Positions 16,648 through 59,322 of a stretch of DNA of 64,000 nt are shown piece after piece. The stretch lies in the NCBI RefSeq assembly GCF_058153355.1, contig NZ_CM177019.1, one strand, 5' to 3'. The first letter of the stretch is position 1, and every line of letters begins with the position of its first letter. A program made the position numbers and the translations under genes. A model generated the notes under the pieces. It did no database searches, had not been told where the DNA came from, and was given only the letters and a program-made list of their open reading frames with translations.

Positions 16648-17401
16648 GTTGTCACCCTGGACCTGGTCGTACATTTAAGAAATTAAATCATTTCAACTTG
16701 GTTGTTAACGCAACCTGTATTTTGTTAACGCCGCGTTACGATGGAAAGTATGTCTGCGGAAATATTTTTAATAACTCACCCGCGCGTTGTATTTTTCTTT
16801 TTTTGTTCATACCAAAGTATTAAAACCCACGTAAATACGCTGTTATCTACGCAAAAAAAATATTTTGTTTTCTTTCAAATTTCGGTTTTCCGCAATCAAA
16901 AATCACCAGACAGTCATTCTTCTTGCCCGTCGCTGATTGCTGCGATATGTATTGCGCACAAGCCGTGACAAACCTCGTCTTTTTGCAGTAAAAAATTGTC
17001 CACGGAGGTGTGGAGAAAAAACAAGAACGTTTTACATGACGAAAGGACTACACCGAAATATTTTTATATGCATTATTAGCAAGTTAGCACCATTTGTATG
17101 ATTTTTTAAAATTGTGCAAGAAAAACCAAATGTACAACTTTTCTATCATTTCTAAACTTAATAAAACCTTCAGATTAACATTTTAATATAACGAGTTACA
17201 TTTAGTTACATGTTTAACACTTGATTTAAGATTTGTAATGGCTAGATTGAAATCAGATGTAATCCATTAGTTTTATATTTTACCCATTTAGGGCTGATTT
17301 ATTACTACACACAGCAGTGCAACATCTGTCAGTACTTCTGGTGCTTCTATTTTAGAGGCAGCTGTCAGGTGTGCGATCAATAAAAAAAGCGGGGTTTCAT
17401 C
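16648..17401. promoter_or_regulatory. csgBAC / csgDEFG divergent intergenic control region (about 750 bp, AT-rich)
   Basis: long AT-rich spacer between divergent csgB and csgD; position corresponds to the well-studied curli regulatory region; individual binding sites not mapped here. Confidence 0.75.
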
Positions 17402-22946: not shown

Positions 22947-23034
22947 GGTGAGGTGTCCGAGTGGCTGAAGGAGCACGCCTGGAAAGTGTGTATACGGCAA
23001 CGTATCGGGGGTTCGAATCCCCCCCTCACCGCCA
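22947..23034 (+). tRNA. serX: tRNA-Ser (anticodon GGA), 88 nt with long variable arm
   Basis: ggtgaggtgtccgagtggctgaaggagcacgcctGGAaa...gggggttcgaatcccccctcaccgcca; cloverleaf by eye, CCA-encoded 3' end. Confidence 0.9.
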
Positions 23035-23480
23035 TCTTTAAAGAAGAGCTCGTACGAAAGTACGGGCTTTTTTTTTCGTATATTGCACACACCGGGGGGA
23101 TGAGAAGCCCCGACAGGGGTTCGACAACTGGCGACAGCCAGTTGGACAGACCGTGAACGCAGTGAGCGGGCTGCCCGCAGGGCGAGCGAAGCGAGTCAAT
23201 CCCCCCCTCACCGCCATCTTTAAAGAAGAGCTCGTACGAAGGTACGGGCTTTTTTTTCGTATATTGCACACACCGGGGGATGAAAAGCCCCGACCGGGGT
23301 TCGACAACTGGCGACAGCCAGTTGGACAGACCGTGAACGCAGTGAGCGGGCTGCCCGCAGGGCGAGCGAAGCGAGTCAATCCCCCCCTCACCGCCATCTT
23401 TAAAGAAGAGCTCGTACGAAGGTACGGGCTTTTTTTTCGTATATTGCACACACCGGGGATGAAAAGCCCTGACCGGGGTA
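23016..23480 (+). repeat. tandem direct repeat array, about 2.6 copies of a ~180-bp unit, each unit beginning with a 19-nt copy of the serX 3' end and a hairpin+T-run
   Basis: aatccccccctcaccgcca recurs at 23016, 23198, 23378; following ~160 bp nearly identical between copies, with internal 8-bp stem caactggc/gccagttg. Confidence 0.85.
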
Positions 23481-24760: not shown

Positions 24761-25684
24761 TTAACTGTATGCATGTAGCGTACGTTGGCAAAGTGCTGAA
24801 CGTACGCAATCCTCTTTACCGAATCGGACGATCCCGACCATTTCATCTTCTTCGAAACGTTCCAGCGCGTCACTTAATCCGGAGCGCACGCCGCGAGGTA
24901 AATCGCATTGCGTGATATCACCGTTGACAATAACCGTCACGTTCTCCCCGAGGCGGGTTAAAAACATTTTCATTTGCGCGGCAGTCACATTCTGCGCCTC
25001 GTCAAGAATGACGACTGCATTTTCAAAGGTACGTCCACGCATATAGGCGAACGGCGCAATTTCCACCTTCCCTATTTCCGGTCGCAGGCAGTACTGCATA
25101 AAGGAAGCCCCTAAGCGACGGACCAGCACGTCGTAGACCGGGCGAAAATAGGGAGCAAACTTTTCTGCGATATCACCAGGTAAGAAACCAAGATCTTCAT
25201 CGGCTTGCAGAACTGGACGGGTGACGATAATCCTGTCGACATCCTTATGTATCAGGGCCTCTGCCGCTTTTGCGGCACTGATCCAGGTTTTTCCGCACCC
25301 GGCTTCGCCGGTGGCGAATATCAGCTGCTTACTCTCAATAGCCTTCAGATAGTGCAATTGCGCTTCATTTCGCGCGAGGATGGGCGAGGTATCGCGACTG
25401 TCGCGGGCCATACCAATGGCTTCTACGCCGCTCATCTGCACAAGCGAGGTGACCGATTCTTCTTCACGCTGCTTATGGCTGCGCGAATCCCGTCTCAGCA
25501 CACGTTTTGCCTCGCGACGAGCTTTGATCACTGCTTTTTGTCTTCCCATGGAGAGCACCTTGAGTTGTTTGTATTCATCACACGCGCCGTTGGCAGCGCG
25601 ATTATGCGCACGAACATCAGAGGGTTGGCTTCCTTGTAAGCCATAGTTTGCTTTTGGATAAAATGCCGAAAAACGGCTACGCAC
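24761..25684 (-). CDS. phoH: PhoH, phosphate-starvation-inducible ATPase (307-aa ATG ORF; true N-terminus uncertain, see findings)
   Basis: ORF 24761..25684; Walker A GEAGCGKT and PhoH-family core; synteny next to efeB. Confidence 0.8.
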   Translation of the reverse strand: MRSRFSAFYPKANYGLQGSQPSDVRAHNRAANGACDEYKQLKVLSMGRQKAVIKARREAKRVLRRDSRSHKQREEESVTSLVQMSGVEAIGMARDSRDTSPILARNEAQLHYLKAIESKQLIFATGEAGCGKTWISAAKAAEALIHKDVDRIIVTRPVLQADEDLGFLPGDIAEKFAPYFRPVYDVLVRRLGASFMQYCLRPEIGKVEIAPFAYMRGRTFENAVVILDEAQNVTAAQMKMFLTRLGENVTVIVNGDITQCDLPRGVRSGLSDALERFEEDEMVGIVRFGKEDCVRSALCQRTLHAYS

Positions 25685-26014: not shown

Positions 26015-26180
26015 CAGCAGGATTCGCATCAGGCATCAACGCACGAACGCCGGATGCGGCGTGAACGCCTTATCCTGCCTACCGAACCCGCACCGATTGT
26101 AGGCATGATAAGACGCGCAAACGTCGCATCAGGCATCAGCGCACGAACGCCGGATGCGGCGTAAATGCCTTATCCGCCTC
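26015..26180. repeat. REP/BIME cluster (three or more REP units) between phoH and efeB
   Basis: repeated gccggatgcggcgtgaacgccttatcc and inverted copies. Confidence 0.7.
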
Positions 26181-42054: not shown

Positions 42055-42165
42055 TTCATGCCGGATGCGGCGTGAACGCCTTATCCGGCCTATAAAACAG
42101 TGCAAATTCAATATATTGCAATCTTCTGGTAGGCCTGATAAGCATCGCGCATCAGGCAAGCTTAC
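42055..42165. repeat. REP/BIME element between rutG and ymdF
   Basis: gccggatgcggcgtgaacgccttatccggcctac plus inverted gtaggcctgataagc... Confidence 0.7.
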
Positions 42166-48109: not shown

Positions 48110-48709
48110 TTATCTGTTTTGGTTGTCGCACTCCACTAACGCCAGCAATAACTGGCTTAGTGCCGCGTAAAAACCAAAGCTATCATACTGATGGCAACAC
48201 GCCGCAAACTCCGGTAACCATTGTCGCAGCGCCGTCAGTGTTTTTTGCCGCAGATTGTCGATTCTTCGCGCAGGAACGGTCCCCTCTCCCAGCGAAAAAT
48301 GCAGATGACTCAACAACTCGAGATAGATCGCCAGATGATCTGCCGGTTCGTTGAAATTGCCGCTGGTTTCCATCCCTGCCTCAACTAACAAGCGTTTAAT
48401 CTCTTGCTCGTCCTGTTTGTAGGCCGATGCATAAGGCAGCGCCGCTTGTTTGTCGGTCATCAGAAACAGGCCGCAAAAGTCAGCGGCCAGTTCCAGACGG
48501 GCGTCGTCACGCACTGTCAGAGCGGCAATTTTAGTTTCCAGCTCGTTTACCGCCGCAGTGAGCGGCGGTTCGCTTTTTAGCAACGAAAACCATTCAGCCA
48601 TCTGCGCACTGGCGATTTGCGTTAGTTGTTCATCGTCCAGCTCACGGGAGAACAACTGCGCCAGCCAGGCGTAGACACAGGCAATCTGTTGTGCTGTCAG
48701 CGTGGTCAT
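48110..48709 (-). CDS. torD: TMAO reductase chaperone TorD (199 aa)
   Basis: ORF 48110..48742; start [10 protein letters not shown] overlaps torA stop. Confidence 0.9.
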
Positions 48710-51252
48710 GATTTCACCTGCGACGCGGGAACATATTCGCACTGCGCCACCATCTCAACGGGGCCGTTAAACGCCGTCACTTGTTCCACTGTTCCGTTGT
48801 ACTTCTCAATTTCCACCAGCGTGGTATGTGCACTGGTCGCCTGCGCCAGCTGCGAAGTACCGATGTCGATGGTCAACACGTTGGGGTTACCGTATTTACA
48901 CAGTGCACCAGGCTCGCCGCCTTTATCTGGATCGTACCATGCCCCTTCGTGAATTCGTGCCACGCCGGGTGCATAGCAGTCAGAAACCACTGCTCCAGCC
49001 AACACCTGACCACGAGCGTTAAAGACGCGCACCACATCACCGTTACGAATACCGCGCGCACTGGCATCCTGCGGGCTAATAAATACTGGCTCTTTACCCG
49101 CAACCGTATATTGCTGACGCAAAGTTTCCGACTCACATAACTGCGAGTGAAGTCGGAAATCCGGATGCACAGATTGCAGATGCAACGGATACTTCTGCGA
49201 GCCGGGCCCACCGTGGGAGCGTTCGATTTTCTCAAACCACATCGGATGCCCCTGACAATCGTCGTAGTTCATATCAGCGATGGTTTTCGAGTAGATCTCA
49301 ATCAGGCCACTCGGCGTGCCCAGCGGTTCGAGATCCGGATCTTCGCGGAATGCCTGGTGGCGAACAAACATCTGCGGATGGTCAAACTCGACGTACTCTT
49401 TCTTATTCCAGAAGTCATCAAACGCTGGCAGATGAACACCGCGTCCTTTGCCCTGTTGTACACCTTCCTGCCAGATGCGTTTCAGCCAGCCCATTTCGTC
49501 CAGCCCTTCGGTAAAGGCTTCTTCACGATTAAAGCGACGGCACAGCTCGCGGAAAATATCAAAGTCGTTGCGCGCCTCAAACTGCGGCGGCACCACCTGT
49601 TTCATGGCGATGATCCCACGGTTGGAGTGGTTACCGTACTGGTCGAGATCGTTACGCTCAAACTGCGTGGTCGCAGGCAGTACGATATCGGCAAAGCGGC
49701 AGGTTGAGGTCCACTGATTATCTATGGCGATAACCGTTTCCAGCTTGCGCCAGCCTTCGATAATGCGGTTGATCTGCTGATGGCGATGGAACGGGTTAGT
49801 TCCGGCAAAAATACACATTTTCAGCGGCGGCAGTTTTACCGATTTACCATTCCAGTTGATCACTTTTCCCGGTTCGAGGATCGCATCGACAAAACGGGCA
49901 ATCGGAATAGTGCTGCTATAGCCTTGGTAGTCGCTGTTGTCGTGAACAGGTGGAATCGACGTAGAGCCGGAGAAACCACTCAAAATAACGCCTTTACGCC
50001 CCGGCGTGCCTGCGCCGTTATAGTGCCAGCCAAAACCAAAGCCACCACCTGGCAGGCCAATTTGCCCCAGCATCGCCGCCAGTACCACAATCATCCACGC
50101 CCACTGTTCACCGTGCTGCATACGCTGTACGCACCAACCAGCAATAATCTGCGTTCTGTTCGCCGCCATCTGCCGCGCCAGTCCACGAATGGTTTCGGCA
50201 TCAATGCCGGTCAGTTTTTCAGCCCATGCGGCATCTTTCGGCTGACCGTCTTTCTCGCCCAGCAGATAGGGCAGGAACTGCTCAAAACCCACACAGTAGT
50301 TAGCGAGGAAGTTTTTGTCGTACAGGTTTTCGCTGTACAACGTATGCGCCAGCGCCAGTTGCAGCGGCACGTCAGTTTGCGGGTTAACCGCAATGTGCTT
50401 CACATGCTCGCGTCCCAGATACTCATGAGTGGATGTAACAACCGGATCGATGCTGATGACCTGAATTTCACCGGCGGCGACTTTCGCTTTCAACTGCGCG
50501 TAATATTCATAAACATCGTGATCCGGGCACCACCAGTTCGCTTGCTGGTTTTTCAGCAAATCGGAGCCCCACAGCACAATGGTTTTGCTGTTCTGCAATA
50601 CCAGCGGCCAGGAGGTTTGCTGTTCATACACTTCCATTGAGCCAACTACACGCGGCAGGATCACCTGCGCAGCACCGGTGGAGTAATCCCCACCCGTACC
50701 AACGCTATTACCATGTAAGGCAATCGCTTTCGCCAACATCCCCGACGCGTTATGGAACATCCCCGTCGACTGCCAACCACTGGCGGTCAACAAGGCACTC
50801 GGCCCGTGAGTTTTCTGTACGCGTTCCAGTTCTTCATAGAACATGTCGAGGGCTTCATCCCAGCTCACGCGCACAAAACGGTTATCACCTCGCTGGGAGG
50901 TGTCGCTCAGATGGCGCTTACGTAGCCAGTCCACGCGTACCATCGGATAACGAATACGCGCCGCGTTGTGTACGTGGTCCGGCAATCCGGCGATCATTTT
51001 CGACGGATATTTATCCAGTTCGAACGGTTTTGCCGCCACAAAGCGACCATCCTTCACCGTCGCGCGGATAGCCCCCCAGTGCGACCCGGTAAGAATGCCC
51101 TCTTTCGAGGTGACAGCCTCAGTCGCCGCTTGCGCCGCAGTCGCACGGCGCGGCGTTAACAATGACGACCCCAGCATCCCGGCGACAGTTAAGCCGCCGA
51201 GTTGTGCCAGAAAACGTCGACGTGATGCCTGAAAGAGATCGTTATTGTTCAT
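48706..51252 (-). CDS. torA: trimethylamine-N-oxide reductase TorA (molybdoenzyme, Tat signal, 848 aa)
   Basis: ORF 48706..51252; twin-arginine signal [12 protein letters not shown]. Confidence 0.95.
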
Positions 51253-52424
51253 TATTTTTCTTCCTTCTTATCGCCGTGAGCCTTACCTGCGGTATCAGAC
51301 GCATTCATTTGCAGATATTTCAGCAAGGTGCGTTCTTCACGTTTATCGAGGCTGGTAAAGCCAATCATGCCGTTGAGCGTGCCAATCCAACCATTAGCGT
51401 CGAAGTGGGCGATTTCCGGTGCGCCGTGGCATTGATTACAAGTGCCGTTGTACAGCGAATCCGCATAAGCCCAGATCGGTTTGATATCGTTCACCATGTC
51501 GCCTTTCTTCATCCACGCGGTGGCCTGCAATTTGCTCCACTCGGTATTGGTATCGGCAACGGTGGTTTTCTCCAGCGTTTTCACCTGCTGCTGAACATCG
51601 CCACGAATCGAGGCAACAAAGATGCGTTTGCCAGGGAACTGGGTGAGTACACGCTGACGTCCTGCGCTTTCCGTCCAGCCAGTGATTTCAATTTGCAGCC
51701 AGTCGCCGTCACGTTTAAGGACTTTCACTTCCGAAGCAGGCAGCAGAGAACCAGACGCTTCTTTATCGCCTTTCGCCGCATAAATTGGCTTAATATCAAT
51801 GGAGTACAGCGTATCACCACTATCATTTGCACTGGCGCGCAGCTCATCGAATTGCTTACGGAAGCCACTACTCATATCAGGTAACTGGTGGGCAATACCT
51901 TTATGACAGTCGATGCAGGATTGATTATCTTTCGCTGCCACCTTCATCTGACGTGCCGCTTCAGGATGTTGCTTCGCATGATCCATCGCGTCGTAGTTAT
52001 GGCAGGAGCGGCAGGTTGCCGAGTTGTTTTCTTTCATTCGCGCCCATTCACGCTCGGCAAGTTCCGCGCGTTTGGCTTCGAATTTCTCAGGTGTATCAAT
52101 GGAGTGGGCAATAAAGGTCTGGTAGATGTCGTTGCTCGCTTCCAGTTTACGCTTCACCATGCCTGGAATATCCGGCGGGATATGGCAGTCATGGCATTCA
52201 GCTCGCACGCCGGAGGCGTTCTGGAAATGCACCGACTGTTTATATTCTTCATACACCGGTTGCATACTGTGGCAACTGACACAAAATTCGGTTGTGCTGG
52301 TGACTTTGATCCCCACGTGAGGTAACACAATCAGCGCAATGCCAATCACAATCCCAATAGCGACCAGCGCCAGTACCGACCAACGAGCACTGGGTCGGCG
52401 TAACGCGTTCCAGAGTTTCCGCAT
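51252..52424 (-). CDS. torC: pentahaem c-type cytochrome TorC (390 aa from Met MRKLWNAL)
   Basis: ORF 51252..52472; multiple CxxCH haem motifs. Confidence 0.9.
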   Translation of the reverse strand: MRKLWNALRRPSARWSVLALVAIGIVIGIALIVLPHVGIKVTSTTEFCVSCHSMQPVYEEYKQSVHFQNASGVRAECHDCHIPPDIPGMVKRKLEASNDIYQTFIAHSIDTPEKFEAKRAELAEREWARMKENNSATCRSCHNYDAMDHAKQHPEAARQMKVAAKDNQSCIDCHKGIAHQLPDMSSGFRKQFDELRASANDSGDTLYSIDIKPIYAAKGDKEASGSLLPASEVKVLKRDGDWLQIEITGWTESAGRQRVLTQFPGKRIFVASIRGDVQQQVKTLEKTTVADTNTEWSKLQATAWMKKGDMVNDIKPIWAYADSLYNGTCNQCHGAPEIAHFDANGWIGTLNGMIGFTSLDKREERTLLKYLQMNASDTAGKAHGDKKEEK

Positions 52425-52459
52425 AATAGCCCCTGTAAAATTATGGTTTAGTGAAGCGA

Positions 52460-52530
52460 TCTTAATGAGCAAATATGAACAGCGGCACTGGTCAGGATGA
52501 ACGGCTTACGGCAGAATATGAACAGAATGA
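52460..52530. promoter_or_regulatory. torR-torCAD intergenic region with repeated decamers (candidate TorR boxes)
   Basis: atatgaacag at 52473 and 52516, ggatgaacgg at 52495 (reverse complement of CTGTTCATAT-type box). Confidence 0.7.
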
Positions 52531-52543
52531 GTAAAACTCTCTG

Positions 52544-53236
52544 ATGCCACATCACATTGTTATTGTTGAAGATGAGCCGGTTACCCAGGCGCGATTACAA
52601 ACCTACTTCACTCAGGAGGGGTATACGGTTTCCGTTACGGCGAGCGGTGCCGGGCTGCGTGAAATTATGCAAAACCAGCCAGTGGATTTAATTCTGCTGG
52701 ATATCAATTTGCCCGATGAAAATGGCCTGATGTTAACCCGCGCCCTGCGGGAACGTTCGACGGTGGGTATTATTCTGGTTACCGGACGCAGCGATCGGAT
52801 TGACCGTATTGTTGGGCTGGAAATGGGCGCAGACGATTACGTCACCAAACCGCTGGAACTGCGCGAACTGGTGGTACGGGTGAAAAATCTGCTCTGGCGA
52901 ATCGACCTCGCGCGACAAGCTCAACCGCTCACTCAGGACAACTGCTATCGCTTTGCCGGTTATTGCCTGAATGTGTCGCGCCATACGCTGGAGCTTGATG
53001 GCGAACCGATTAAACTAACCCGCGCAGAGTATGAAATGTTGGTGGCATTTGTGACCAATCCGGGCGAAATTCTCAGCCGTGAACGTCTGCTGCGTATGCT
53101 TTCTGCGCGCCGGGTGGAAAATCCCGACCTGCGCACCGTCGATGTGTTAATTCGTCGTTTACGTCATAAACTCAGCGCGGATTTACTGGTGACACAACAT
53201 GGCGAAGGTTATTTCTTAGCCGCTGATGTGTGCTGA
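52544..53236 (+). CDS. torR: response regulator TorR (OmpR family, 230 aa)
   Basis: ORF 52544..53236; receiver domain plus winged-helix. Confidence 0.9.
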   Translation: MPHHIVIVEDEPVTQARLQTYFTQEGYTVSVTASGAGLREIMQNQPVDLILLDINLPDENGLMLTRALRERSTVGIILVTGRSDRIDRIVGLEMGADDYVTKPLELRELVVRVKNLLWRIDLARQAQPLTQDNCYRFAGYCLNVSRHTLELDGEPIKLTRAEYEMLVAFVTNPGEILSRERLLRMLSARRVENPDLRTVDVLIRRLRHKLSADLLVTQHGEGYFLAADVC

Positions 53237-54237
53237 TAAAAATAGACCGGACGAAATCCCCCTGGTGACAGCGAGCGGCGGATATGTTCGCGATCGGCAT
53301 TTTTCGGCGTCAGGACTAAAATCGGTGGGCTGACATTATCAGACACCGATTGTCCCTGTAATTGCCTGATCGCTTGCTCAACCGCCAGTTCCCCCTGCCA
53401 GACCATTTGATCGCTGGCAGCCATGATCACTCTTCCCCGCTTTAGTCCGCGATACACCTGATGTGAAAGATAAAATGACACCACGGTCAGCGGCGTTTTC
53501 AGGTTGCGCCCTTCACCCATTGCCGCCTCTGCCGCAATCGCCGTTCCGGCCACAACGTCGATTTCTGGATGGCGCTCCAACATCTCCTGCAACAGGTTAC
53601 GCTGGATTTCAATATCGTTGTCGCCGAGCGCAATATCGACAATACGCACCGGGCTTCCGGCAATGGCGGCGCGGAAACCCTCTACCATCTCCTTACTGCC
53701 CCCGGCGTTATCGGGGCCGGGCATCAACAGCACGTTCAGTGGTTTTCCGTGACTCCATTGCACCAGATATCGCCCTGGTTGATAGCCCATCTGAAACCAC
53801 GGCACACCAACGCGGCTTTTCACCTGGGGAGCATCAATAGCATTTACCAGTTCGATCACCGGCAGACTTGCTACCTGCTTTTGCAGGTCGGGAAATGACG
53901 TCGTGCTACTACCGAGCAAAATGGCCTCTGCACCCCACTGTTTGCACTGGTCGATTTGTGCTTGCTGGGTAGCCAACTGGCTGTAGCCGCCTGCCTCCAG
54001 CACTTTTAAATCCACACCGTAGCGGCGAGCAGCCTCCTGCATACCATAGTTCAACGATAACCAGTATGAATCTTTCAGGCTGGGATAAAGCGCGCACAGT
54101 TTCCATGCGCGTTTGGCTTTAAGCGGCATAGAGGCTTGCACCGTGAAATGCTGCGCATCATGCCAGCGCAACAAGTTATCAGCCGAAAAACCAGGCCACA
54201 TGAAAAGGGAAAGAAGTAACAATAGCAGTACGCGCAT
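53209..54237 (-). CDS. torT: periplasmic TMAO-binding protein TorT (342 aa)
   Basis: ORF 53209..54237; signal peptide; 3' end overlaps torR 3' end by 28 bp. Confidence 0.85.
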
Positions 54238-54319
54238 GATAGCCTCATCAATGATAAGGCTTTATGCTAGATGCATTCCGCTTTGCGACTCAACCTTTTT
54301 CACCTTAAGTACACTGACC

Positions 54320-57064
54320 GTGAATTTAACCCTGACCCGAAGACTCTGGATGGGCTTTGCCCTGATGGCGCTGTTAACCCTGACCAGTACCCTGGTGGGA
54401 TGGTACAACCTGCGCTTTATCAGCCAGGTGGAAAAAGACAATACTCAGGCATTGATTCCTACCATGAATATGGCGCGCCAGTTGAGCGAAGCCAGCGCCT
54501 GGGAACTTTTCGCCGCCCAGAACCTGACCAGTGCCGATAACGAAAAGATGTGGCAGGCGCAGGGGCGAATGCTCACCGCACAAAGCCTGAAGATTAACGC
54601 GTTGCTGCAAGCGTTACGGGAACAAGGTTTTGATACCACCGCTATTGAACAACAGGAGCAGGAGATCTCCCGTTCGTTACGTCAACAAGGGGAACTGGTG
54701 GGGCAGCGTTTGCAACTGCGCCAGCAACAACAGCAACTCAGCCAGCAGATAGTCGCTGCTGCCGATGAGATCGCACGCCTGGCGCAAGGTCAGGCGAATA
54801 ATGCGGCGACCTCTGCCGGAGCGACCCAGGCCGGGATTTACGATTTGATCGAACAACATCAGCGTCAGGCCGCAGAAAACGCACTTGATCGGCTGATTGA
54901 TATCGATCTTGAGTACGTTAACCAGATGAATGAACTGCGCCTTAGCGCCCTGCGGGTGCAGCAAATGGTGATGAATCTGGGGCTGGAACAGATCCAGAAA
55001 AATGCGCCAACGCTGGAAAAGCAACTCAATAATGCGGTTAAAATTCTGCAACGTCGGCAAATACGCATTGAAGATCCCGGTGTTCGTGCACAGGTCGCGA
55101 CAACGTTAACTACCGTTAGCCAATATAGCGATTTGCTGGCGCTGTATCAGCAGGACAGTGAAATCAGCAATCACCTGCAAACTCTCGCCCAAAATAACAT
55201 CGCCCAGTTCGCACAGTTTAGTAGCGAAGTCAGTCAACTGGTCGACACCATTGAGCTGCGCAATCAGCACGGGCTGGCACATCTGGAAAAAGCCAGTGCA
55301 CGCGGGCAATACAGCCTGTTATTGCTGGGAATAGTTTCTCTTTGCGCATTGATTCTGATCCTCTGGCGCGTGGTTTATCGTTCAGTCACGCGTCCACTTG
55401 CCGAACAAACGCAGGCGCTGCAACGACTGCTGGACGGTGATATCGACTCCCCTTTTCCGGAAACCGCTGGCGTGCGGGAGCTGGACACCATCGGGCGGCT
55501 GATGGATGCGTTTCGCAGCAGTGTTCATGCGCTTAATCGCCACCGCGAACAGCTGGCGGCGCAGGTAAAAGCGCGCACAGCCGAATTGCAGGAATTGGTG
55601 GTCGAACATCGACAGGCACGGGCGGAAGCAGAAAAAGCCAGCCAGGCAAAATCGGCGTTTCTGGCGGCAATGAGCCATGAGATCCGCACACCGCTGTACG
55701 GTATTCTCGGCACCGCGCAACTGCTGGCAGATAACCCCGCACTTAATGCCCAGCGTGATGATTTGCGGGCAATTACTGACTCTGGTGAATCGTTGCTGAC
55801 CATCCTCAACGATATTCTCGATTATTCGGCTATCGAAGCAGGCGGCAAGAATGTTTCGGTCAGCGATGAACCCTTTGAACCGCGCCCGTTGCTGGAAAGT
55901 ACCCTGCAATTAATGAGCGGACGGGTGAAAGGTCGCCCGATTCGCCTGGCAACTGAAATTGCCGACGATGTACCGACTGCGTTAATGGGCGATCCGCGGC
56001 GTATTCGTCAGGTCATTACCAACCTGTTGAGCAACGCCCTGCGTTTCACCGACGAAGGGCACATTATCCTGCGTAGTCGCACTGATGGCGAGCTGTGGCT
56101 GGTCGAAGTGGAAGACAGCGGCTGCGGTATTGATCCCGAGAAACTGGCTGAAATCTTCCAGCCATTTGTTCAGGTTAGCGGCAAACGCGGCGGCACCGGG
56201 CTGGGGCTGACTATCAGTAGCCGTCTGGCCCAGGCGATGAGCGGCGAACTGAGCGCCACCAGCACGCCGGAGGTTGGAAGCTGTTTTTGTTTACGCTTGC
56301 CGTTACGTGTTGCCACTGCACCCGTGCCAAAAACAGTCAATCAGGCGGTGCATCTGGACGGTTTACGTTTGCTGTTAATTGAAGATAACCCGCTAACCCA
56401 GCGAATTACCGTTGAGATGCTGAACAACAGTGGTGCGCAGGTCGTTGCTGTTGGCAATGCCGCGCACGCGATAGAGACGTTGCAAAATAGCGAACCGTTT
56501 GCTGCCGCACTGGTGGATTTTGATCTGCCGGATATCGACGGTATTACCCTTGCCCGACAACTGGTACAGCAATATCCGTCGCTGGTTTTGATTGGCTTTA
56601 GCGCTCATGTCATCGACGAAACGTTGCGCCAGCGTACCAGTTCATTATTTCGCGGGATTATCCCTAAACCGGTGCCGCGTGAAGTGCTCGGTCAGTTACT
56701 GGCGCACTATCTCCAACTGCAAGTCAATAACGATCAACCGTTGGATGTATCGCAACTCAATGAAGATGCGCAGTTGATGGGGACGGAGAAGATCCACGAA
56801 TGGCTGACATTATTTAAACAACATGCCCTGCCGCTTCTCGATGACATCGACATTGCCCGCGCCAGTCAGGAAAGCGAGAAAATAAAGCGTGCCGCACATC
56901 AGCTAAAAAGCAGTTGCTCGAGTCTGGGAATGCGTAGCGCCAGCCAGCTATGCGCACAACTGGAGCAGCAGCCATTATCTGCCCCCCTTCCACACGAAGA
57001 AATTACACGCAGTGTTGCCGCTCTGGAAGCATGGTTGAATAAGAAAGACCTGAACGCGATTTGA
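54320..57064 (+). CDS. torS: hybrid sensor kinase TorS (about 914 aa, probable GTG start)
   Basis: ORF 54113..57064; sequence from [13 protein letters not shown]; HisKA/HATPase, receiver and HPt segments. Confidence 0.85.
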
Positions 57065-58651: not shown

Positions 58652-58824
58652 GGTCAGTGCGTATTTGCAGCGCGACGTTATCAAAGGTGATCATCGTCGA
58701 TTTACAAAAAATACACTTTGCCCCTAAAGGATTTCGCTCCGTCACATCGAATGCCGATGTGCGGTACTGTGAACCATGACAACATGGACAGCGGAAATGG
58801 AGATGTTGAGTAATAACGGCAACC

Positions 58825-59037
58825 TTAGAGCGTAACAACGTTCGCTGCCGCGGGACCACGTTGCCCCTGCTCAATAGAAAATTCAACTTTCTGATTTTCG
58901 TTCAGCGTGCGGAATTCATTGCTCTGGATGGCGGTGAAATGGACGAAAACGTCTTTGCTGCCATCATCAGGAGTGATAAAGCCAAAACCTTTATCTGCGT
59001 TAAACCATTTTACTAAACCAGTCATTTTATTAGACAT
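58825..59037 (-). CDS. cspG: cold-shock protein CspG (70 aa)
   Basis: ORF 58825..59037; CSD with [15 protein letters not shown] motif. Confidence 0.9.
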
Positions 59038-59322
59038 ATTTTACTTCCTTCATTTTGGGCCTTTCGGCAAACAGGGCTTTAATACAGAAACTACTTAGTG
59101 TTCAGGAGAGAGACTCAAAAGAAGGGGATAATGCCTGATAATGAGAACTGCTTTAGTAAACTACTTTGTATGCTGTCTGTCTTTCAAACCGACGCAGCTA
59201 TTAACGCATGATAATTGAGATTAAGCAATTTTTATTTTAGCCGTCCGGCGGTCTTAAATATCGCTGGCTTTATTTTATTAACCCCGTATAGTGCAGCGCA
59301 GTATTTTCAGTAAGGAATTTGT

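Follow-up and report, generated by a model that had tools for sequence, protein, structure and literature searches.

The torCAD operon and the torR gene face away from each other across a short control region (Table 1), which lies within the window, meaning the whole stretch of 64,000 nucleotides analysed here. Gene order around torC and torR is syntenic with Escherichia coli K-12 and with other E. coli strains. The start codon of torC is at 52424 on the minus strand and that of torR at 52544 on the plus strand, and the divergently transcribed genes are separated by 119 bp, compared with 129 bp in K-12. Each of the six tor ORFs (torS, torT, torR, torC, torA and torD) is full length and free of stop codons, with the cognate regulator and its TorS/TorT sensor encoded alongside the control region; decay of the tor locus, as in Shigella, was considered and dropped, since all six genes are full length. 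Pfam assigns Response_reg and Trans_reg_C domains to an identical torR gene (loci L088/L089), and the exact TorS protein of the window is also encoded in GCA_043012465.1.

The TorR protein of the window differs from that of K-12 by S20T, S46P, H129L and R151L. It is 100% identical, over the best segment, to the TorR proteins of E. coli SCPM-O-B-8794 and of E. albertii NBRC 107761, and therefore the unusual TorR allele may be K-12's own. The 3' ends of torR (plus strand) and torT (minus strand) converge in a 28-bp overlap at 53209-53236, as they do in K-12. The torT-torS spacer (54238-54319, 82 bp) is without an inserted prophage in this strain; phage HK022 has its attB site between these two genes, where the torS/torT promoters under IscR control also lie (PMC6814406).

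Elsewhere in the window, 2.6 tandem copies of a 180-bp unit, at 97% identity, form an array at 23016-23479. The array begins within the 3' end of a tRNA gene (22947-23031) and may consist of duplicated tRNA 3'-ends or of attachment-site remnants. Rfam matches above the gathering score were a cspA-type thermoregulator 5' UTR in the cspG/cspH region (58771-59193, minus strand), Ysr251 (24766-24959, plus), ES056 (17255-17346, plus), naRNA4 (26102-26179, minus) and ES036 (42094-42136, plus).

Table 1. Features of the tor locus in the window.
Feature	Position	Strand	Basis and remarks
torD, TorA chaperone, intact	48110..48709	-	199 aa, no stops
torA, TMAO reductase, intact	48706..51252	-	848 aa, 10 substitutions vs K-12, no stops
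torC, pentahaem cytochrome c, first gene of torCAD, intact	51252..52424	-	390 aa, identical to K-12 TorC
torC-torR divergent control region	52425..52543	.	ORF and start-codon positions, K-12 annotation, alignment with one 10-bp gap
tor box4, CTGTTCATAT, torC-promoter-proximal, 58-49 nt upstream of torC ATG	52473..52482	-	exact match; K-12 alignment
tor box3, CCGTTCATCC	52495..52504	-	7/10; same as K-12 box3 in alignment; core kept in Citrobacter and Edwardsiella
tor box, sole remaining unit of tandem box1-box2 pair, CTGTTCATAT	52516..52525	-	exact match; K-12 has CTGTTCATATCTGTTCATAT here
Place of missing decamer	52515..52526	.	10-column gap in two alignments; independent assembly (L091) agrees
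torR, OmpR/PhoB-family response regulator, intact	52544..53236	+	230 aa, full length, 4 substitutions vs K-12
torT, periplasmic TMAO-binding protein, intact	53209..54237	-	342 aa, 5 substitutions vs K-12
torS, sensor kinase, intact	54320..57064	+	914 aa, 29 substitutions vs K-12, no stops

The control region contains, on the plus strand, two copies of ATATGAACAG (52473-52482 and 52516-52525) and one of GGATGAACGG (52495-52504), which on the minus strand read CTGTTCATAT at 52525-52516 and 52482-52473 and CCGTTCATCC at 52504-52495. The three decamers share one orientation, toward torC on the torC-sense strand, and successive copies start 21 and 22 bp apart. A preliminary description of this DNA had reported such repeats between torC and torR at 52460-52530; all three do lie inside that range, exactly where it had put them and facing the same way, and ORF positions and the K-12 annotation agree on torC and torR as the flanking genes. 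Exact CTGTTCATAT occurs twice in the 64-kb window, both times in the torC/torR spacer, against a chance expectation of 0.09, and none of 100 dinucleotide-preserving shuffles reached two copies. The middle copy, CCGTTCATCC, matches at 7 of 10 positions, a score that is not rare by itself, with 477 matches of up to three mismatches observed in the window against 427 expected; what gives it weight is its orientation, a phasing of two helical turns and the fact that Citrobacter and Edwardsiella have kept it.

Alignment of the spacer with those of K-12 MG1655 and E. coli 2013C-4282 gave one to three substitutions and one 10-column gap. Positions 52482-52473 align with K-12 box4, at the same distance from the torC ATG in both genomes, 52504-52495 with box3, and 52525-52516 with the box1-box2 tract. 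The published sequence is CTGTTCATAT for box1, box2 and box4 and CCGTTCATCC for box3, with TorR binding to them demonstrated (PMC9239176); box3 is called low affinity in the literature. In genomic SELEX the torR/torC spacer yielded one TorR peak (PMC5934670), torCAD is activated by phospho-TorR (PMC6814406), and the action of TorR at the boxes, namely repression of torR and TMAO-responsive activation of torCAD, is known only for the four-box regions of K-12 and Salmonella (PMC9239176, PMC5934670, PMC9436347). On the alignment, the window decamers are the known tor boxes of the torR/torCAD control region, orthologous to those of K-12 and already a known feature. The TorR-box reading of the preliminary description is borne out, as the characterised boxes map to the same positions and the published sequences match. 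Matches with three mismatches are common in the window, and one might suppose that the decamers are chance repeats or the site of another regulator; this is so improbable that it hardly counts, given the excess of exact copies, the conservation of the box layout across genera and the SELEX peak within this very spacer, and a chance or non-TorR origin was rejected on the base-for-base orthology of the region to the experimentally characterised K-12 operator.

The operator is flanked by a 9/10 direct repeat, TTTACTCATT at 52526-52535 and TTTGCTCATT at 52464-52473 (minus-strand reading), which directly adjoin, respectively, the distal box on its upstream side and box4 on its downstream side. Read as TTGCTCATTA, the downstream copy is a 6/10 tor-box match placed exactly 10 bp after box4 and could be a degenerate partner half-site; this site lacks conservation in Citrobacter and is partially conserved in Edwardsiella.

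The window and the K-12 tor region (Simon et al. 1995, Mol Microbiol 17:971; Ansaldi et al. 2000, J Bacteriol 182:961) have in common the locus, the orientation, the decamers, box3 and box4, the spacers and the distance from box4 to the torC ATG. They differ at box1-box2, where K-12 has CTGTTCATATCTGTTCATAT, two adjacent units, and the window a single CTGTTCATAT, giving three boxes instead of four and bringing the torR ATG 10 bp nearer to box3/box4. The tandem box1-box2 pair has lost one of its two 10-bp units, and box3, box4 and the spacers are unchanged. Because the lost and the retained units are identical, the breakpoint cannot be placed. Tandem Repeats Finder detected no tandem array in the spacer of the window, consistent with a single unit. 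The setting is otherwise that of the operator, with decamer repeats directed toward torC in the torR/torC spacer, box3 and box4 in phase and an intact cognate regulator; what departs from it is the four-box arrangement with its tandem pair, which is represented by a three-box allele at the orthologous locus. The 'two plus one' count of repeats in the preliminary description was correct for the window and overlooked the 'three plus one' architecture of the reference. A consensus scan of 52350-52650 recognised no sigma-70 promoter or terminator; the -10 and -35 elements of torC and torR were consequently left uncalled, and the scan gives no basis for predicting how losing 10 bp would act on the promoter and leader of torR.

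Close relatives of the window strain were found by exact-protein look-up with its TorS and TorA. Over 6,287 bp, the Logan assembly of SRR31441161 matches the window at 100% identity, the 119-bp spacer included. In GCA_043012465.1, with two or three substitutions in 8.5-8.7 kb, the spacer is the 129-bp two-unit form, and SRR28786219, with one substitution in 6.3 kb, is also two-unit. The window sequence lies outside the 5,426 complete E. coli genomes, where the closest hit reaches 98.8% over 20 kb. The missing decamer might be ascribed to a sequencing or assembly artefact, a collapsed tandem repeat with a true count of four boxes, considering that the nearest relatives are all two-unit and that the confirming Logan contig may come from the same reads as the window assembly. 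Such an artefact is very improbable: the repeat tract of about 20 bp is far below read length, where collapse is not expected, a different assembler produced the identical sequence, and 13 finished genomes have the one-unit allele, with three- and four-unit alleles existing too. Judged by these genome comparisons, the deletion is real, recent and strain-specific, its recency following from the two units kept by relatives that are 1-3 SNPs away over 6-8.7 kb.

The number of tandem units varies within E. coli. Searches for the one-, three- and four-unit alleles covered 5,416 complete E. coli genomes with the locus. The one-unit allele was found in 13 genomes (0.24%), among them O157:H7 PV15-279 and F3113, O45:H2 FWSEC0003, O166:H15 JNE21-009, EC5931 and JNEC-KY204. 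Two units are present in about 5,320 genomes (approximately 98%), which include K-12 and nearly all others; three units occur in 73 genomes, many of them O121:H19 strains, and four units in 4 genomes, including O26:H11 FWSEC0001. Representative sequences were read and confirmed. With the tandem unit collapsed, O157:H7 PV15-279 (one unit) and O157:H7 F6321 (two units) show 0 mismatches in the 700 bp around the site, as do O45:H2 FWSEC0003 (one unit) and O26:H11 FWSEC0001 (four units) over 700 bp. The six one-unit alleles that were examined represent six different haplotypes. The occurrence of different copy numbers on identical flanking haplotypes indicates that copy number changes recurrently and independently, in the way expected of short tandem repeats subject to slipped-strand mispairing. 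The one-unit allele cannot re-expand by slippage, and the preponderance of two-unit genomes argues against high switching rates. Several one-unit genomes appear to share the local haplotype of O45:H2 FWSEC0003, which suggests clonal inheritance; being common to this group, the allele cannot be strongly deleterious. A literature search of limited coverage found no description of tandem-repeat polymorphism in the tor boxes, and PMC10845959 and PMC10662104 contain no operator details.

Beyond E. coli, the operator was compared through a scan of GTDB species representatives. The tandem pair together with box3 and box4 is found in E. albertii, in Citrobacter werkmanii and in two Edwardsiella species, with the inter-box spacers also kept. 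Budvicia and Aeromonas have TTCAYA cores at offsets 0, +10, (+31) and +53, and in three Shewanella genomes a TTCAYA-N4-TTCAYA pair adjoins torR. This distribution marks four boxes as the ancestral, strongly conserved arrangement and the state of the window as a derived loss of half the pair. In Escherichia, Citrobacter and Edwardsiella, the spacers at 52483-52494 and 52505-52515 are conserved to the same degree as the boxes, with CTGACCAGTG invariant; this conservation suggests a possible constraint beyond the TorR half-sites.

The TorR operator of the torECAD promoter of S. oneidensis is said to be a single TTCATA-N4-TTCATA direct repeat. The Shewanella site thus has the same half-site core and 10-bp period as the enterobacterial box1-box2, and the two arrangements are incomplete in different ways, since Shewanella has the tandem pair without box3/box4 and the window has box3/box4 with half the pair. 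TorR is similar to PhoB in combining Response_reg and Trans_reg_C domains and in using direct repeats of about 10 bp, as in the pho boxes and other OmpR-PhoB operators, which are occupied by head-to-tail dimers on tandem half-sites. The likeness to PhoB extends to the binding mode only, as the tor operator adds a distal high-affinity pair and proximal low-affinity boxes two helical turns apart.

What the loss of one unit might do can be considered in the light of the two K-12 studies named above. Box1-box2 reportedly overlies the torR start site and binds TorR with high affinity, phosphorylated or not; this binding is said to repress torR. The pair, in phase, is also said to be needed if phospho-TorR is to bind box3-box4 cooperatively and so activate torCAD with TMAO; in K-12, induction was reportedly abolished by deletion of box1 and lost when either box1 or box2 was mutated. 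OmpR/PhoB regulators bind as dimers on tandem half-sites. With one half-site left, the distal site would be expected to bind TorR at single-box affinity only (approximately 1-3 µM), the Kd of TorR for single boxes being 0.97-3.11 µM in vitro (PMC9239176). Such a Kd is far above the concentration that results from fewer than 50 (tens of) TorR molecules per cell, and for this reason a weaker distal site would relax the autorepression of torR, and the TMAO induction of torCAD would be reduced or would depend on a higher TorR level. The loss amounts to exactly 10 bp, about one helical turn, so the surviving box keeps the spacing and helical face of box2 relative to box3/box4, and relative to the torR start codon it occupies the position of box1; the retained phase with box3/box4 may soften the defect. 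Functional impairment of the three-box allele is, on this analysis, a little better than an even bet. The preliminary description had the decamers positioned to activate torCAD and to autoregulate torR; this holds insofar as they form the known operator, and autoregulation is its least certain part, the high-affinity tandem pair being halved here.

The allele may alternatively be neutral or compensated, with torCAD normally inducible, if a TorR monomer were stabilised by cooperativity with box3-box4, if TTACTCATTC were used in place of the lost unit, or if derepression of torR raised the amount of TorR. That the one-unit allele occurs in 13 complete genomes, several of them with a common local haplotype, that all tor genes of the window are intact and that TorR binds single boxes in vitro (PMC9239176) speak for this, as does the helical phase with box3 and box4 that a 10-bp loss preserves; additional TorR from relaxed autorepression could also offset a weaker site. 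This alternative is nevertheless rather unlikely. The tandem pair has been kept from Escherichia to Aeromonas and Shewanella, the one-unit allele is rare, and in the lineage of the window it marks a very recent branch. TTACTCATTC, a 5/10 box-like sequence 9 bp upstream of the surviving box, was rejected as an unlikely replacement half-site, for it is off-register (9 and not 10 bp) and lacks conservation in Citrobacter and Edwardsiella. Also against neutrality is the loss of induction that reportedly followed deletion of box1, or mutation of box1 or box2, in K-12. The preferred reading remains that of a TorR operator present as a three-box allele, which arose by recent slippage loss of one tandem unit and in which a weaker distal site would relax torR autorepression and lower torCAD induction; as a whole, this explanation is considered highly probable.

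Tandem repeats of variable number are known from the promoters of contingency loci, for example upstream of Neisseria nadA and between the promoter elements of Haemophilus hif. The tor operator is similar to these in having a regulatory tandem repeat with recurrent copy-number change among strains; unlike them, it has only one to four copies of a 10-bp unit, with 98% of genomes in one state, and the likeness is a loose one. Going further, the tandem tor box might be imagined as a regulatory dial, in which contraction to one half-site or expansion to three or four would retune the set point of TorR autorepression and hence the inducibility of TMAO respiration, or its cell-to-cell variability, by lineage. 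The window strain and O45:H2 would then be low-affinity variants and O121:H19/O26:H11 multi-site variants, kept by selection and not by drift. This proposal is speculative and is regarded as doubtful.

The tor boxes themselves are textbook knowledge; what the analysis adds is the missing box and the one- to four-copy polymorphism of the high-affinity TorR half-site. Strains with one, two, three and four copies on otherwise identical sequence constitute a natural series that tests the K-12 model of box1-box2, in which the pair serves both in the repression of torR and in the nucleation of torCAD activation. Regulated stochastic expression has been studied in the Tor pathway, with its tens of TorR molecules per cell, and because the regulator is so scarce and Tor expression stochastic, a change in operator strength could, as a conjecture, alter TMAO respiration and consequently trimethylamine production in some pathogenic lineages (O45:H2, O121:H19 and O26:H11).
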